From Okamejei kenojei (taxonomy: Eukaryota), in the NCBI GenBank assembly GCA_035221665.1, contig CM069145.1, positions 48,298,001-48,362,000 on the forward strand: DNA of 64,000 nucleotides, written 5' to 3'. The notes under the pieces are model-generated. The model was not told the DNA's origin and searched no databases. It saw only the letters and a list, made by a program, of their open reading frames with translations. Positions within the stretch are counted from its first letter, which is position 1; every line of letters begins with the position of its first letter. Of this stretch, positions 17,120 to 54,198 are shown in pieces. The translations under genes and the position numbers were made by a program.

Positions 17120-17642
17120 GTAAGTTTGCCGCTCTGCTCTCGGTGATCCATTCCACACTGCTCACCTTCTACACTTTATTTTGGGTCGTGGATTAACGCT
17201 GCCGGTCACAGCTAGTTGTGTGCGAGCTCTTTGGTTTTTGGAGGCTGGGGAGGGAGGGGACATTGGAAGCTGACTTTTAACAATTTGTGTGCTGTTTCTT
17301 TGTGAGAGCCATCTCCTCAAAAATCAGTCAGTGAGCAGGATAAATGTGGAAGGATGAATGATGGCCAATTTGAAAGACCATAATATTCCATTGGTGGAAA
17401 GTAAAATTGGACATGTTTGTCTGTTCAACTGCAAACGCCCAATTTTAAGGTTCCTCTCTGAACAACTGCCACATGGTTCCAACTATTTTGCAGTACCTGG
17501 TAACTTTTTTGCTCATTCTGTTTAGAATAAGTTTTGCAAATGCTCCATTCAAATCTTAGATACTGTTCGGAATGACAGTCTCTTCATTGTTTTTTTTCTC
17601 CACTTTTTGTTTCCCTTTACTGCTGCATGGATGTTTTTTCAG

Positions 17643-17741
17643 TAAACTTCACCTTCCTACCAACCCTCCCCCTCTCAACGAGGGTGAGAGCTTGGTTAGC
17701 CGAATCCTGCAGCTTGGTCCTCGTGGAACAAATTTTATTGG
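17643..17741 (+). CDS. ANK3: ANK3 99-nt cassette exon, an internal duplicate of the ZU5A segment (KLHLPTNPPPLNEGESLVSRILQLGPRGTNFIG)
   Basis: ttttttcag acceptor, gtaggc donor at 17742, symmetric phase 2 to 2, no stop codon. Aligns without gaps to the last 33 codons of the previous exon. An equivalent cassette is known in ANK2/ANK3. Confidence 0.88.
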
Positions 17742-19608
17742 GTAGGCTGTTTATTAAAAAGATACAAACTGTCACAGCAGATTTTTTTTTTTTTCTCTCT
17801 CTTCATTTTCTTTGGTATTTATTTTGAGTCATTCCCCATGTTTTTCTGTTTTCTTTTTTGGAAAAAAAAAAAAAAAACCCACCACACACAACTTTCAGTT
17901 TTGTCGCTGAGAGAAAATCATACTGGCTTGATCTATTGAAGCACTGTTGTTTTAAGCTTGGCGCTTACAGGCATGTTTCTAATTCACTGCAAGCATTCTG
18001 CCTCCATAACTGCTTTACGTCATCCGTCGGGAATCTATCAGCTGCATCAACTGCATTCAGTGATAAGTGACCGCTCTTTACATCCAATATTGGGTATAGA
18101 GAAGGTATCAGCGGAAATAGATGCGACTTTGTGTCAGATGGTAACAAGAAGTTAAATCGACTGAAGTCCGTAAAAATCGGACAATGGTTCATTTACTTGC
18201 CAACCTTTCTGCCGGCCCGGCAAAATGCCTTCCATGTTAACAAAATAATTTGTTAGACGTGCATGGGCCACACTTGCAAAATAATGGGAAAAGTCCACTA
18301 TAATTTTTTTTTTTTTTTTTTTCAGACATTCTTAAAAATAGCAAAATTGGTATTTTAACCTGTCTATCCTCAAAACGTTGCAGAAGAATATCTGCTCAAA
18401 AAATTTGGTGTTTAGTAAGGAGCTAGTCAGATACATCATGGTATTGCTAGCGTTTCTGCTTGGTAAAGTTCAGGTGAAAAACGTGTCCCTCGATTACCAA
18501 TGGTTCGGTACGTTCTCTATATCCATGTGTTCATTCTGGTTGGCTTGCACCTCACGTAGGAAATTATCAATCTGACGATATGTACTTTCAGTGAACAGTG
18601 TAAGTTTTTGGTGCCGCGTAAGGCTGTATGTCCAAGGTGGGGCACCAAAGTGTGTGTTGTATCTCCATTGCATCCTTCAGTGATCACGCGCGCATTATCG
18701 GCATATTTGTAAGCAAAAAAAAAAAAAAACGGGTTTACTGTGTGCGTGCCCAGCGTTGAATATTATGAAGTGGAATGTTAGAAATGTAAGAAGCACGAGA
18801 ACCATTTCTTCATTTCCAAAATTCTGGCCAACAGAGAGAAAGAGAGAGTGAGAAAGAGAAAGGTCTGGGGTGTGTTACAAAATGCAAGAGTCGCTATTTT
18901 ACTGTTTTTTGTCGAGTGTTTTGGTATAAAGTAACGATATTTTCAACAGACGGAAACCTTAATTAAAAGGGTTTGGGGGGGGGTGGGAATCCTACAAAGG
19001 GCTACAAAGTTCCATTCTCAAGCTCAATTCTTTAGTATTTAAGTTGCTAATTATAGAGATTGAATGTGTAAATCGCACAGCCACCTTCAACCACCACCAA
19101 CTTTCTCCTCGCTTTGGAGATGGTTGTGAGGATGTAATCTTCGATTTGATTAATTTAACAGAGCCTGTATAAATGACTGATAAAACAAACTGTCTCATGC
19201 TTTCATGAGGGCCATGTCGATATAATATCCTAATGTATTTTTCGAGTTTAAATCGTGTTTACAACCTTTTTGACTATGGGTTGTGAAATCTTCACGGAGT
19301 AAGACCTTTTCTCCCAGAAACATTAAATGGCCATGAATTGTACTGGAAAAAAAAACTCAATTTATAAATTTACTGCAGAGGTATGAAAACACATAGCAAA
19401 AAATGAACGAGCTTTATCTTGAGTGTAGCAATGGTTTCTTCAATCGGAGGATAAAAATGATCCAAGTTTGGGTAGGGGCAGTGTAAAGGGTTAAAAAACC
19501 CCATCTCAATCGTGTTGTAATGGGGAATTCAAATAGCTGTTGGAAGAGTTAAGGACATGCCTCGGGGTGCCAAAGAGTGATCATGCAATCAATGTTTCTC
19601 CTTTCCAG

Positions 19609-45538: not shown

Positions 45539-45671
45539 TACTGACTCATTTCTCTTTTCTCTGGTCTCCCCATTCCCTTAATTTGTCCTGTTGAATTTTT
45601 TTTTAATTTTGGATTTTATTTTTGGATTTTTTTTCTTTTTTACATTTGGATTTCATTTTGGAATTTTTAAG
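45539..45671 (+). promoter_or_regulatory. Distant branch point and extended AG-exclusion zone of the giant-exon acceptor
   Basis: TACTGAC at 45539-45545; no AG between 45536 and 45669; U-rich tract with four TTTGGA units; AAG acceptor. Confidence 0.6.
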
Positions 45672-48600
45672 AAATCATTGAGCGAAGTACAGGAACCACC
45701 AGGACTGTTCCCGCACCATACTCGTACAAGCCAGTCTTTTCAACAAGGCCCTTCCAGTCGTGGGCTACAGCCCCCATTTCAGTAGCTGGACAAGCAAAAT
45801 CTGGGATCACCTCTCTTTCAAGTTCGACGTCCAACACGCCTACCGCCTCCCCGCTAAAGTCAATTTGGTCTGTTTCTTCCGCTTCACCCATCAGATCAAC
45901 CTTAGGAGCTTCCACGACTTCCTCAGTAAGATCCATGAGTGATTTAGCATCTCCAATTAGATCATTTAAGTCCACATCTTCACCTATAAAAACTGTGGTG
46001 ACGCAGACTCAGTACTCTGTTAAATCTTCCTCTGCTTTGATTTCTTCACCAGTGAAAGCGTCAGTAATGCCTGAATCTTCTGTAAAAGGACTAACCTCGT
46101 CATTGTTTTCCTCACGGCTGTCGCCAGCATCGACGGCAGGCTCGCTGCTGGAGAGATCGTCCATCACCATGACCCCACCAGCCTCCCCCAAGGCCACCAT
46201 GAATATGTACTCCTCCACCTTGCCGTTCAAGTCCATAATCACCACGGCGCCCACGGTTCTGTCCTCCCCTTTGAAATCAATGTCGACGTCGGGGTCGTCT
46301 CTCGTTAAATCTGTTGTGGACGCAACCCAAGGATTGGCGCCCGCGTCCTTTTCTCCATCTAAGCTGGTCCCTTCGACGAACGGACAGGTCTCTGCGAACG
46401 GGTTGGCGTCGCCGATAAAGTATCCCTCGGCGGCGGCTTTCTTCAACAGCCAAGCGTCTGCTTCGTCTCCCGAAAAGGCCCCGGCCGCCATTCTGGCCAA
46501 CAACTGCGCCCTGGCCGTGCAGAGCGCAGCGGAGAAGGCCCACGCAACCAGCAGCGGAGTCACGTTCGCTCCGCTGAAATCCTTTGCCTCGCCAGCCCCC
46601 TCCACTTTCCAGACAATCAGATTGCCCTCCGCCGGCTCCTTGTACTCCTCACGGCCGTCATCCGTGACCACATCTGTGACCTCGCCGACTATCACCGTCC
46701 CTGTGTACTCTGTTGTCAATGTGTTATCTGAACCGCAGCTGAAGAGACTCTCTGAGACCACATCATTAACCAAGTCAGCCGCTGCATTGTTATCTCCCAT
46801 AAAATCCTTGACGACGGAGTCTCGAACACAAGCACAGTCTCACTTTACCAAGACTATGTCCCCGTTGAAGACCTCCCTGTTCCTTGCACCTTCCGCACTG
46901 AAGCTGTCATCTGCCTCCTCTCTGTCTTCGAGCCAGGAAATTTTGAAGGACGTGGCTGAGATGAAGGAGGACTTGATGAAGATGACGGCCATCCTGCAAA
47001 CAGACTCGGCAAGCGACAAGGCCTTCCAGTCGGAAGCCTCTGCAAAAGGAGGGAAGAGTGAGGATGACAGCGAGGAGCCGTTCAAGCTTGTGGAGAAGGT
47101 GAAGGAAGACCTGGTGAAAGTCAGCGAGATCCTTCAGAAGGATGGGCTGACGGAGAATAAGAATGGCGTTAAAGTAGCTCAGAAGAATGGGGAGCTTTCG
47201 GGTGAAGGCGAATGGGTTATGTTCGACTGTGATGACATTGAGGAGGCAAAGCAGAAGGCGAGCGAGCACTTTGGCACTTTTGTCCCAATGAAAGTGAAGC
47301 ACGGCGGAGAGAAGGACTTCAGTTTGGCAAGAGTCGTTGACTATTTGACGAACGATCTTGGAATTGACACACTGGGAAAGATGAGCGATAGTAAATATCG
47401 CCAAGCTGATATCAAAAAGGAAGGGGACGACAAGATGTTCTCCAAGAGGGCTCATAAGCCAACAATGCCTTTGCCAGAACATAAACTGAAGATGCCGCCA
47501 CCTTCCATGCGGTCATCCGCTTCAGAAAAAGAACTGAGCAAGCTTGCCGACGCCTTGATGGCAACAGAAGCTATTCTGGAGTCACCCGATGATTTTTCTC
47601 AACACGATCAGGACAAGAGTCCTCTGTCAGACAGTGGGTTTGAGACCAGGAGTGAAAAGACACCTTCTGCCCCGCAAAGTGCAGAGAGCACTGGGCCCAA
47701 GCCTCTCTTCCAAGATGTCCCCATACCTCCAGTCATTACAGAAACTCGTACGGAGGTAGTCCGTGTTATCAGAAGCTACGAGCCGTCGTTAGAGGAAATG
47801 CAGGAGTCTAAAGTCGAAGGGTTGGCTCCATTGCAAAATGTCGACATGTTCTCCGAAGGGGAGGATAAACCGATTGGGTCCATCAAAGACAAGATGAAAG
47901 CCTTCCAGATTAAAATGAAATCTGAGGACGAGGACAGTAAGTGCCTGAAGAGCAAAGAAGTGCGCGTTAAGGAAGAGACTCAGATCACGACCACCACGAG
48001 GATGGTTTACCACTCGCCTCCCTGCATGGAAAGCAAAACAAGTGAAAGGATAGAAGAAACCATGTCCGTTCGCGACATTATGAAGGCTTTTCAATCGGGT
48101 CGCGACCCATCCAAAGAATTGGCCGGCCTGTTTGAGCACAAGTCGACGTCGGTCTCTCCAGAGTGCAGCAAGGCTGGGGAAGCAATGTCGTGTTATCGTG
48201 ACAAAGACTCCAACTGCAAACCAAAGGTGGAACGGACGTTTGAGTTTCACATTGAAAAGGGGAATAAAGTGGACCCTACCGAGGTCATTATAAGGGAGAC
48301 GAAAAAGCACCCGGAGAGGGAACTGTTTGTTTATCAGAGAGATTTCCTGGGGGAGAGCGAGGCCAAAGTGTTACCCGAGAGGTTTGATGCTAGTCAGGAT
48401 GAGCAGGCTCAGCGGGATGACGAGGAGCTGACGGCCGAAGAGTCTCTTCCATCCTGCATGGAGTCGTCGAGAGTGAACACGCCCGTGTCGCAGGACGACG
48501 AGAGCCGGCCCAGCTCGGCGCAGCTCATCTCCGACGACTCGTACAAGGCGCTGAAGCTGCTCACACAGCAGTCTGTCGAGTACCACGACGACGAGTACTT

Positions 48601-51600
48601 AGAGCTAAGGGGCGAATCGTACCGGTTCGCGGAGAAGATGCTGCTCTCCGAGAAAATGGACGTCTCTCACTCCGACACCGAGGAGTCGGTCACCGAGGCG
48701 CCTCAGGCCTTCTGCCTGGGCTCGCAGGCGATCGGCCATTACCAGAGGCTGGCCGAGGCTTCGCCGGAGAAGGAGCTCGCCAGGCTGCACAGAATGATAC
48801 CGGGCAGCGCCGAGCACGACGGACGCTTCGAGAAGGTGGCGGTGCTGCACTACCCTTCCGAACCCGGCAGCCCGAAGCACGCCGTGTGGATGCGCTTCAG
48901 CGAGGACAGGCCGGAGGGCGGCAGGGAAAAGCTCACCTACGAGGACCGGGTGGACCGGACGGTGAAAGAGGCGGAGGAGAAGCTGACCGAGGTGTCCCAG
49001 TTCTTCCGGGACAAGACGGAGAAACTGAACGACGAGCTGCAGTCGCCTGAGAAGAAGCCGCGCAAGCGGGAGGGGGCGCAAAGCCCCCACTCGGGGTACA
49101 GCTCCCCCAGCAGCAGCCCGGAGAAGCTGAGACAGGCCGAGGTGTCGGGCGCTGACGAGTGGCTCCAGGAGAGGCAGGGCGAGCAGTACCTGCGCCGGTA
49201 CTCCGTCCGAGGCTCCGAGGAGAGGAGGGCGGCCATGGACTCTGCCCAGAGGACTCACGCGGCCCTCGCGGATGAGCCGAGGCACCCGACGAAACATGGC
49301 GAAGATCCGTCGCAGCCGCCGTTTCACCTGAAGCAAGCCGCCAAACACGAAACGCCGTGCGCCAAACCAGAGGCGGCCGCGAACCAGAAAACCCGCGAGT
49401 CGTCGTCTTCGCCGCGATGCTCCTACCCTCAGGACCAGCAGGCCGACGGCAGGTTGAGGAAAATGGCGGCTCCTTGCTCTGCCGCCCAGCTGGACGATGA
49501 GGAGAGGCCAAGCTTTGTGGAAAGAAACCTGGCGGAAGGGCCGCTGAACGGGTCTGTGAAAAGGCAGCATGAGAGCAAGTTGCCCACCTACCAGTTCTCC
49601 TTGAAGGAAATCAACCAGAAGAAGCTGGAGTATGCGGCAGAAGGGGCCATTTCGACGGCAAAGGAAGTGCACACCAGTAAATTCAAGGACTTGAGAGGTC
49701 TCGGAGGTCTCGGCATTGGGACGGAGCCTGTGTCGTCCACCGCGGTGCTTCAGAAGGCGGTGGACGTCGCGCCCAATGCCGGTGTTTCTCAGTTTGTGGC
49801 CCCTGTCCCGAAGCAGCTGGTGTTTGGGGCAAAAGGCACGGCTCGGATTTCTGAAATTAACCCGCCGTCGAAGAAAGAGCCCGAATCGCACGCCAGGTCG
49901 GACAAGGAGAGGAAGGTGTACAGAACCTGGGAAAATTGTGGGAATTCAAACCGTAAGTCACACAAGGACAAGCTGACGCACGTTCTTGTCCACGACAACC
50001 TGAAAGAGGGCGAGGCAGCTCAAGCTGAGGGGCAGACGAGGGAGAAGGTTGACCCCGTTTTGGAGAAGGAGCACCTTCCAAGCAATGGCCATCCGGCGAA
50101 GAAGGTTCAAGGGGCCCCGGTGAGCTCTCCGTCCAGGAAGGCTGGTTGCCCGGAGCGAGCTCCGGGGGGTGGCGAGAGATCTGGTGAGCAGACGCGAGCA
50201 AAGAGCGTGAGGAAAGAGAATCCCATCGCAGATTCCAGTCCGAGTTCCAGAAGAGAGGCCAAAACCAATGTCAAAGGTGCAAGACTGCAACGGTGGTCAG
50301 GTGAAATTGCGCAAGACTGATGCGGTAGCTAATCTGCCCAACGCGACGCTTGGCAGGACCAAAAAGGGTCAGCAGGTTTATCAAGTATCGGAGACCACTG
50401 TCCAGACCAAAGGCTCCAGGGACAGTCGGTCTAACAGGCTTGGGGAGAGCGTGGACCCAGGCAGCTACCGGGATGAGCTGGAAACCTCCCCCATCAAATC
50501 TCCCGACTCTCTGGAGTTTAGCCCCGTGAAGGATTCTTCGCTGAGTGAGTTCTTTGATCAGAGCCCGGTCGAGTGTTTGGAGAAAGCAGCGCCCTTGGCG
50601 AGCATTGAAGGATTTAAGGAGATAAAGTCCTTGCCCGTGTACGTCAACGTTGTTCAAATGGGGAAACACTGCGAGAAAGAATCTTCAGGCCCGCACCAAG
50701 TCAACGTTAAACGGATAATCAGTCAGGAAAGTAGGACTGTGCAGGAGACACGGGGCACCTTTTACACGGTTCGCCAGCATAAGCCATCGCCTTCCCCTCA
50801 GGGCAGCCCAGAGGATGACACCTTGGAACAGGTATCGCTGATGGAGAGTTCTGGTAAAAGCCCCGTTACACCCGAAACGCCCAGTTCTGAGGAAGTCAGC
50901 TACGAACTATCTTCCCAGGTGCCAACCATGCACGGAAAACCAAGTCCCATCCCTGAGGTGTCGGAGGAGGAGGAGGAAGAGCTGGTCAGGGTGGGCTCTG
51001 TTAAAGATGTGAGCGGCTTCACGAGACCCTTGAGGCCGAGTGAATTGGAGGGGAATGATAAGCGGCAGAAGGAAAATCGTGTGGCCTACATCGAGTTTCC
51101 CCCGCCCCCTCCTATCAACACCTTGGACACGGAGGTTCCCAGCGTCAGGAAAAAGGAATACTGTGCCAAGGCCAAGGATGGGCTGGACATGATCGAGCTG
51201 AACTTGCAGGAGATGCACGATAAGCATTTCATGGCCGAGCCCGTCATCCGAGTCCAGCCGCCGTCCCCCATCCCTCCCGGGGCCAACGACAGCGACTCCA
51301 GCAGCGACGAGTCCATCTTCCAGCCGGCCCCGCTGAAAAAGTACACGTTCAAACTCCAGGACGATTCCGCTCGCCCGGCCGGCCCGCCCAGGCCCAAAGC
51401 CACAGAGCAGCGCGGCAAAGACAACGATCCCCAGGACGGCGACGAGGACTTTGCCCTGGACGGCACTTCCGACGAGGACGAGCTTCCCGACGGCAACAAC
51501 GACCAGTCGGTCACCGAGTGCTCCATAGCAACGACTGCCGAGTTCTCCCACGATACCGACGCCACCGAGGTCGACTCCCTCGACGGATACGACCTGCAGG

Positions 51601-53472
51601 ATGAAGACGATGGCCTGACTGAAATGGACTCCAAATCCTTGAATCAGGGGCTAGAAACCAAGATGGATGTTTGGGTCACGGAAGGGATATTGAAGCAGGG
51701 GGATCGTTGCTATAGCCAGGGTAAACTTGCAGTAATTGAGGAAGAAGGAAAGGTAGGCGCTGAAGAAGAAACACCCTTGCAGTCTAAAGCTCAGACGTCT
51801 GAAAAGACAGGCGAAGGGAAAACTGATGGTAAACCAGGACCTGAGATCTTCACTTTGGAAGGCAGGCATCCTGAAAGAACCCGGTTTAATGATACGTATT
51901 TTAGTTACAAACTAGAGGAAGAATTGGCAACCCAGTTTAAAACTGTTGCCACCAAGGGCCTTGACTTTGATCCATGGTCTAACGGCCGAGGGGACGATGA
52001 AGTCTTTGAAGCTAGGTTGAGAGAGGATGAGCAAAAAGCCTATGGCTTAGCGGTAGAGGACAGGTCCCAGGCGACAACACCAGATACGACCCCAGCCAGA
52101 ACCCCGACAGATGAGAGCACTCCAACTAGTGAGCCTAACCCCTTCCCATTTCATGAAGGGAAGATGTTTGAGATGACTCGCAGTGGTGCAATTGACATGA
52201 GCAAGAGGGATTTTGTTGAAGAAAGGCTCCAATTTTTCCAAATTGGTGAGCATACCGCTGAAGGGAAGTCAGGGGACAAGGGGGAGAGGGGTAAAAGCGC
52301 ACTTGTAGTCATGGCACTGCCTCAGTCAGGGGAAAGCGCAGCTGAGGCATCACTCGAGGCACCGCAGGGTGGTCACGAGAAGGTCCAGGCTAACGGAGAT
52401 GGCCTGGAGTCGGTATCCAGCGGCAACACAGCGGACAGACCCTCAACCGCCACGGCTGCAAAAGTTGATCCGAAGTCACGCACGCCAATTAAAATGGGAA
52501 TCTCTGCCTCGACCATGACGTTGAAGAAAGATACGGGTGCAACTGAGATGGTTGAAGTTAAAGCTGATACTGTGCTGTTAGATTATCAGATGACGGAGCA
52601 TACAGTGCTAGAAGTAGCTGCAGTTGAGACTAGACCAACGAGTCAGGAATGTATTATAGAAAACTTCAGATCTGATTTGCCCGTAAACTATAATAAAGAC
52701 AAGTTTGATGCCCCAACCCCAGGTACTGACTGCACTCAGGGTGTGAGTCAGTCTGAAGCCAAGGCGACCATTGAACCAGCTGTCCAAACCGAAGAGAAAA
52801 ATCTCGGTTCATTGACATCCCCAAGGGCCGATGTAGTGAGGCCAGTCAAGCTGGCTGCTGAGCCAGCAAGAAAGCCCAAATCGAGACTTCCGGTAAAAAC
52901 AAACACTGCCCCCTTGCCAATTTCTCACACAGAACAGAAAACGACAACCTGCAAGATGAAGCAGGTTAGGAAGAGCGAGTTAAAGCCAAAAGCAGATCCT
53001 CCCAAACAATTTGACACCAAGTCTAGAATCCCTATGAAAAATAGTGACAAAACTAATTTGCCCTCGCTGACAGTATCCCAGCCCAGTTTAGAGCAGGGAC
53101 AGGTAGCGAAAGTAAAGTCGAAGCAATGTCATTCCAGATTGCCAGTTAAGGTAAGAGCCAGCACTACCACTAATGTATCGAGAGAGAGAGCAGGCAAGGG
53201 ACAACCGAGTGAGGGTTGTAAACATTCATTTGGATATTTTAAAGGGAATAGCAGTGAGGCAGTAACACTTGCGGATCGACGCGCCAACGAAGAGAAAAGG
53301 GGTCAGACAGAGATCTCTGATGAAGACGGCGCGCGGAGAAATGCATCTCTCTCGGAAGCCGGCGTACCTCCCACTGCATCGAGGTCTCCTAGAGATATGA
53401 GACCAGAGGCAGCACCTTTAAAATTAAAGGTTGAAAAGGTCTACAGTGAGACAAGGAGCAGTAAAAGGACTG
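45672..53472 (+). CDS. ANK3: ANK3 giant exon (480-kDa ankyrin-G serine-rich and tail domain), with an apparent +1 frameshift near 50209-50228
   Basis: Acceptor ttttaag|aa giving KIIERSTG. ORFs 45935..50320 and 50268..53543 match ankyrin-G throughout ([55 protein letters not shown]). Donor actg|gtgggg at RSSKRTG. The 7801-nt length is not a multiple of 3. Confidence 0.93.
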
Positions 53473-54123
53473 GTGGGGAGGAAAGCAGTCAGGTTTCTGG
53501 GCCTCGAGGGGCTCGCATCGCGGAGATCAAGCCTAGTTTGTAAAACTTTCGACTTGTTGATCTTTAGTGCATGACTATCTGTGATTGCCTGTGGCGTGAC
53601 TTATCCTTAGCTGCCGTGTCGTCATTGTCATTGTTTGTGTCGTCTCGTATTCCCCCTCCCCACCCCCCCCCCCCCATCCCCACCCACCCCCGTTCTCTCC
53701 AGTGTCATCCCGGTAGTTTTCTCTTAGTAAAGCATGCCGGCCAGTGTGAAGCAGAGAGCTGTAGGCCGCGTCCTCTCTGTAGTGCCACAATTCTCTAAGT
53801 CAGACAAATATCAGTGTGGCACTTCCACGAGAACCTTCATAAAACTTGTAAACGGTACTTGTATACCTCCAGTTACACAACATTCTTGGGTGTTTTCAGC
53901 ATGTTCAAATTCATATTTGTTACTACACTATGATTTTACATTTTTTTCTACATTCAGCTGAATTTGGAACTTATTAACGATCGCGGTAGGATTTACACTT
54001 GTGCAGACCACTAGGGCGTGTGTTTATTTCATTTATATGGGCACGAGTAGATTACTGACCTCAATTTGGATGTTAGGTACGTTACTTGTAATGTTGGCCT
54101 AATTCGTTGTTTAAAAACTGCAG

Positions 54124-54198
54124 GCCCTCAGAGCCCATGCGAACGGACCGATATAAGGACAGCCATAGTAGCAGATCATCTGGGACTGAGCTGGACAG
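54124..54198 (+). CDS. ANK3: ANK3 death-domain exon 1 (GPQSPCERTDIRTAIVADHLGLSWT)
   Basis: ctgcag acceptor, gtaaga donor at 54199, 75 nt, phase 1 to 1. Confidence 0.96.

Follow-up and report, generated by a model that had tools for sequence, protein, structure and literature searches.

An apparent frameshift in the giant exon of skate ANK3 is most likely a one-base consensus insertion in the genome assembly

The closest described counterpart of the locus analysed here is the giant exon of mammalian ANK3 (exon 37), a 7.8-kb exon that gives rise to the 480-kDa form of ankyrin-G and, from its first ~2700 nt, to the 270-kDa form (PMC5422562). The tail of the 480-kDa form binds EB proteins via SxIP motifs (PMC6839619). 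As described in PMC6765234, death occurs around day 21 in mice without giant ankyrin-G, and people whose frameshift affects the 480-kDa form alone are described as surviving with impairment (PMC6765234, PMC8426245, PMC9356056). A second relevant body of work concerns errors in long-read assemblies. For bacterial assemblies, homopolymer-length error is reported as the commonest residual long-read error (PMC8812927), and in published cases (PMC8812927, PMC12007338) a one-base change in a run splits an intact gene, as it appears to do in the skate studied here; those cases concern small genomes, however, and the skate run is short, with 2 to 3 bases. Our literature search recovered no paper that combines ankyrin-G, skate, and giant exon.

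In the skate Okamejei kenojei, the corresponding exon is found in a 64,000-nucleotide stretch of contig CM069145.1 (assembly GCA_035221665.1, positions 48,298,001 to 48,362,000 of the forward strand), which is termed the window hereafter and whose first letter is position 1 (Table 1). Like its mammalian counterpart, it is a single exon of ~7.8 kb located between the spectrin-binding and the death-domain exons, with a Ser/Thr-rich start and SxIP motifs in its tail (PMC5422562 and PMC6839619 for the mammalian features), and identity between the mammalian and skate giant exons amounts to 51-59%. The giant-exon tail contains four strict SxIP matches (50226, 50943, 51264, and 53022), all downstream of the apparent frameshift, which are candidate EB-binding motifs, whereas 10 motifs were mutated in the mammalian protein (PMC6839619). 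When the initial 400 residues of the downstream open frame are used as the query, 120 proteins are listed, 118 of which are named ankyrin-3 while the other two are unnamed or hypothetical, and the best among those listed come from three skates (90-93% identity). The gene is already annotated in three skates. In tblastn searches, ankyrin-3 from the little skate Leucoraja erinacea (P0001), the thorny skate Amblyraja radiata (P0002), and Rhinoraja longicauda (P0003) matches, in order, 12-13 upstream exons, both halves of the giant exon in frames 2 and 3 (90-95% identity), and 2 downstream exons of the window, the flanking exons being in the same order in all three. Both halves are 95% identical to the little-skate protein (the upstream frame to residues 1497-3019 and the downstream frame to residues 3015-3691), 94-95% identical to the thorny-skate protein, and 90% identical to that of Rhinoraja.

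Table 1. Features of the ANK3 giant-exon region in window coordinates.
Feature	Position	Strand	Description
ANK3 (ankyrin-G) giant exon	45672..53472	+	7801 nt as assembled, phase 1-1; AG/GT ends; matched in tblastn by ankyrin-3 from sharks, rays, coelacanth, and mammals
Upstream open frame	45671..50320	+	1549 aa; Ser/Thr-rich start; true reading to ~50224, then out-of-frame tail to TGA
Proposed exitron	50120..50231	+	GTGAGC...CGCAG, 112 nt; unsupported, ordinary coding sequence
TGA	50208..50210	+	In downstream frame; left bound of the shift
Downstream open frame	50211..53543	+	1110 aa; opened by TGA 50208-50210
CCC run	50222..50224	+	One C beyond any compared public run, giving the frameshift; likely consensus insertion
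TGA	50318..50320	+	Premature stop reached when the assembly is read as written
Internal in-frame donor	52246..52247	+	Used in gene models P0001-P0004, P0007, P0009, P0010, P0013, and human P0097; joined to exon at 54124
Next ANK3 exon	54124..54197	+	Leads on to death-domain exons; tblastn

The locus is present in single copy. In the 2.76-Gb assembly (1141 contigs), the 301 bases around the frameshift match one place only, so that this genome-wide comparison yields no second copy or haplotig carrying another allele, and the ANK2 paralogue is located elsewhere, on C1. Given that both halves share 94-95% identity with ankyrin-3 of little skate and thorny skate and that the locus is single-copy, the split of the exon is no chance pattern. 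It is also confined to one spot, as the sole frame switch that the three skate proteins reveal by tblastn within any ANK3 match of the window lies at 50223-50242, with none in the other ANK3 exons of the window.

Two further aspects of exon structure were observed. Three different in-frame donors (52246-52247, 53473-53474, and 53536-53537), all of which are GT in the window, are used by gene models of relatives to end the giant exon; the first of them, which occurs in models from skates, rays, sharks, and human (isoform X21), would yield an intermediate giant isoform ~400 residues shorter than the full form. In addition, a 36-codon ANK3 exon at 17635-17742, in the spectrin-binding region, is matched by the Rhinoraja protein P0003 only (94% identity) and not by P0001 or P0002, and is likely an alternative exon as judged from sequence.

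The original prediction, made from the sequence alone, described the giant exon as split into two ORFs in different frames, and all of its coordinates hold. With splice borders at 45670-45671 (AG) and 53473-53474 (GT), the exon length as assembled is 1 mod 3, and alternative exon ends at 52245 and 53535 likewise give lengths of 1 mod 3. When one base is skipped at 50222, the giant exon comprises 7800 nt and 2599 codons with 0 stops, in agreement with the proposed removal of a C at 50222-50224, and the stop codon at which translation of the unrepaired sequence had been said to end is present. The downstream frame is opened by the TGA that had been proposed as its boundary and reads the expected 11 residues from 50226; in the human ankyrin-3 row P0097, SHIPVRVADER is found at the matching place. 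We scored every one-base skip within 50100-50320 against nine orthologues, and among the 112 skips that are stop-free the summed score, obtained without use of reads, peaks for a skip at 50221-50225. The shift had been placed at about 50209-50228 and is thereby confined to five positions; a location elsewhere in 50208-50320 is rejected on the same score.

Protein comparisons across the junction agree with this placement. In each of the 17 rows from cartilaginous fishes (14 named species plus one without a name), upstream-frame residues lead unbroken into a motif S-x-I-P-[VI]-R, and no X occurs close to the junction. The motif is present in 107 of the 120 listed protein rows; the 13 rows in which it is missed all belong to bony vertebrates, one of them being a one-residue variant. 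These database orthologues are gene models selected for length, among which broken ones would be absent from the listing, and therefore they show the normal state of the gene rather than an absence of broken alleles. The three skate proteins, cluster representatives that use the donor at 52246, differ from the assembly in passing the shift site in one frame, and P0001 and P0002 moreover have two extra residues (SP) just before SQIP.

In the segment 50216-50228 itself, in-frame changes in length have occurred repeatedly: Leucoraja, Amblyraja, and most sharks possess the two additional residues (SP) before SQIP, and the shorter form is found in Rhinoraja, in Mustelus, and in the four public sequence runs described below. 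The two extra residues of P0001 and P0002 hinted at a chimaera of two alleles 6 nt apart, but the longer allele occurs in 0 of the 4 runs; such a chimaera would equally be an assembly artefact.

Independent sequence data are decisive for the extra base. The region 49300-51300 was compared with four runs, chosen from the 20 holding the stretch among 24 listed, which represent four samples, four studies, and two organism labels: X1, X4, and X7 belong to organism A (samples S1, S2, and S4; studies P1-P3) and X10 to organism B (study P4). Each run yields one contig of 8.5-8.9 kb, with a depth of 16-30, that spans all 2001 bases. In all four the base at 50222 is missing, CC being found instead of CCC, and this is the sole difference from the window that is common to all of them; the remaining indels, one of 3 nt in X1 and two of 3 nt and 9 nt in X10, are in frame. 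The numbers of differing letters in the 2001 bases are 9 (X1), 12 (X4), 31 (X7), and 41 (X10), and since the runs differ from the window and from each other, they look like different animals across two organism labels. The unbroken frame that the assembly lacks is thus present in 4 of 4 public runs across 49300-51300, and no stop occurs in the assembled remainder of the exon. The lesion is a one-base change in a mononucleotide run that independent public runs lack, and the runs contain one base fewer exactly where the favoured reading of the original prediction, a consensus indel, had put it. In short, four runs lack the extra base, and its removal restores an open exon that fits orthologues best.

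Because four other public sequence sets are without the extra C, an assembly error is likely. We consider, with a probability of roughly 95%, that the extra C at 50222-50224 is a consensus error lengthening a CC run and that this skate has a normal, unbroken giant exon of 7800 nt. The consensus step would have lengthened the CC run by one base, an event that probably originated in base calling, consensus, or polishing and not in the animal.

Two other observations were made in the same region. Organism A is uneven over 49300-51300, as X7, with its 31 differences, has many changes in common with organism B, which may reflect a high level of polymorphism, structured populations, or a species label that is loosely applied. 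At 49406-49412, X1 has a 3-nt in-frame deletion and X10 another at a neighbouring place, indicating a small length polymorphism.

Two mechanisms by which a real frameshift could be tolerated were considered. One of them, raised in the original prediction, is the splicing out of a 112-nt exitron. The donor GTGAGC at 50120 is good, CGCAG is present at 50227-50231, and the join is stop-free, yet against 9 of 9 orthologues this join scores below the one-base skip (795 versus 1007 for P0001), and the rescue is superfluous once the extra base is gone, as it is in 4 of 4 runs. The poor pyrimidine tract already recognised in that prediction is borne out by a pyrimidine share of 0.30 before the exitron AG, versus 0.65 and 0.50 at the two true flanking acceptors, so that a 3' splice signal is not apparent; likewise, the concern that conserved residues would be deleted proves justified, with 32-36 of the 36 exitron residues kept in 17 of 17 cartilaginous-fish rows. 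The site is bridged by as many as 133 GT-AG pairs that are 60-400 nt long and restore the frame, 16 of which have GTRA and YAG, and hence one such pair is expected by chance. The four run contigs contain no splice joints, but they are DNA or probably DNA and therefore say nothing on splicing; among the listed runs that hold the stretch, none is recorded as RNA. The only match for exitron and ANK3 in our literature search was the review PMC8758631. For the four sampled animals, rescue by an exitron is excluded; for the assembled animal, we regard it as highly improbable.

The other mechanism is a bypass of the real frameshift by programmed +1 ribosomal frameshifting at CCC-A. Slippage of this kind at CCC codons occurs in bacteria, and the geometry would be suitable, as a +1 shift is needed and 50222-50224 forms a CCC codon in the upstream frame. 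Recoding sites are, however, conserved between relatives, whereas here close relatives and likely conspecifics are without the base and have a single frame. Recoding is refuted for the four sampled animals and is, overall, even less probable than the exitron; the chance that either of the two operates is negligible.

If the split is due to a consensus error, similar lesions might be expected elsewhere in this assembly, and they seem to be unevenly distributed. A search for plakins gave 95 matches in eight open frames of 698-5048 aa, the matches of each frame being unsplit, and the ANK2 giant exon is covered by one frame of 1958 aa, with no second frame of at least 150 aa in 15 kb. Across these plakin exons and ANK2 no break is evident in ~17,500 codons, the ends of which were not compared with orthologues, and hence the assembly is not uniformly poor, a finding that speaks against such errors. 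Two of the frames, plectin/epiplakin-like and encoding 5048 aa (C2:365500-379600) and 2544 aa (C549:33700-40900), contain near-regular repeats with a spacing of ~985 nt and ~1230 nt.

The protocadherin cluster (C11, 46.4-48.2 Mb, L006-L045) presents a different picture, with 34 of 81 first-domain matches lying in frames shorter than 790 aa. Of these 34, the 20 best-scoring matches among those without a stop in the first domain were subjected to frameshift-aware alignment with 20 intact exons as references, a sampling that is biased against stops because exons with a first-domain stop were left out. The alignments contain 29 +1, 15 -1, 3 +2, and 4 -2 shifts, together with 8 aligned stops and 5 stops within insertions. 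A single lesion without a stop characterises eight of the 20 exons and is +1 in seven of these eight, so that lone +1 breaks occur in 7 of the 20 selected exons (L006, L009, L010, L011, L013, L019, and L021). Among the 20 one-base insertions in the eight exons that have a paralogue with at least 85% identity, 16 lengthen a run (chance 0.43, p = 0.0009), and L014, 99% identical to L040, nevertheless has five one-base indels and 0 stops. Real pseudogenes and natural slippage can account for part of these counts, and we take the lesion pattern as supportive of a consensus error in ANK3 and not as more than that. L018, with a 173-nt insertion, and L024, with an 80-nt deletion, both also containing stops, look like real pseudogenes. 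Because many of the breaks are lone +1 shifts without a stop, a count of protocadherin pseudogenes based on this assembly is likely inflated.

A real frameshift allele had been named as another alternative to a consensus indel. A fixed or common allele is excluded for the sampled animals, and what is left of that proposal is a loss-of-function allele that is private or rare, is carried by the sequenced animal in the heterozygous state, and came to be chosen for the primary haplotype. Such an allele is compatible with the run data, as the runs are other animals represented by contigs only; these contigs keep one allele, so that a heterozygous allele could hide even in a source sample, and no run is known to derive from the assembled animal, for which reason a small share of the probability stays with this reading. 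Human frameshifts limited to the 480-kDa isoform are reported to cause disease when homozygous (PMC8426245, PMC6765234), from which it follows that carriers are viable; the part of the exon used by the 270-kDa form is limited to the first ~2700 nt, upstream of the shift (PMC5422562); and the shift site tolerates indels, two skates having two extra residues there. The extra C is, however, absent from the contigs of 4 of 4 sampled animals, and its +1, run-extending shape matches lesions elsewhere in the assembly. By a rough estimate, an error somewhere in a 7.8-kb exon would be much more probable than an animal that carries a null allele there. The lethality of mice without giant ankyrin-G (PMC6765234) would, by analogy, imply purifying selection and is counted for an artefact as well. 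We therefore judge a private allele to be very unlikely, though distinctly less so than the exitron or recoding.

If the extra C were real, translation would stop at 50318-50320 and all four strict SxIP motifs would be lost, while the 190-kDa and 270-kDa-type isoforms would remain unaffected. The 480-kDa message would then be a likely target of nonsense-mediated decay. The window would in that case hold a natural equivalent, in a cartilaginous fish, of the human frameshift alleles in the giant exon (Iqbal et al., 2013, as cited in PMC8426245 and PMC6765234), knocking out 480-kDa ankyrin-G only; those human alleles, however, are described as confirmed alleles of patients, whereas the skate base is without read support in 4 of 4 runs. 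A fixed loss of 480-kDa ankyrin-G in a jawed vertebrate, had it been real, would have been a major surprise, given the early death of mice lacking it (PMC6765234).

For users of this genome the case is a caution, as the assembly would annotate giant ankyrin-G as truncated. One-base insertions seem to be scattered through coding exons of the assembly, and other frameshift or pseudogene calls from it, for example those in the protocadherin cluster, consequently need read support. The giant-exon frameshift itself is likely an artefact without biological novelty, and the gene is likely an intact, ordinary skate ANK3. By analogy with mammals, the repaired exon would be spliced into an ankyrin-G of ~480 kDa that organises the initial segments of axons as well as nodes of Ranvier.
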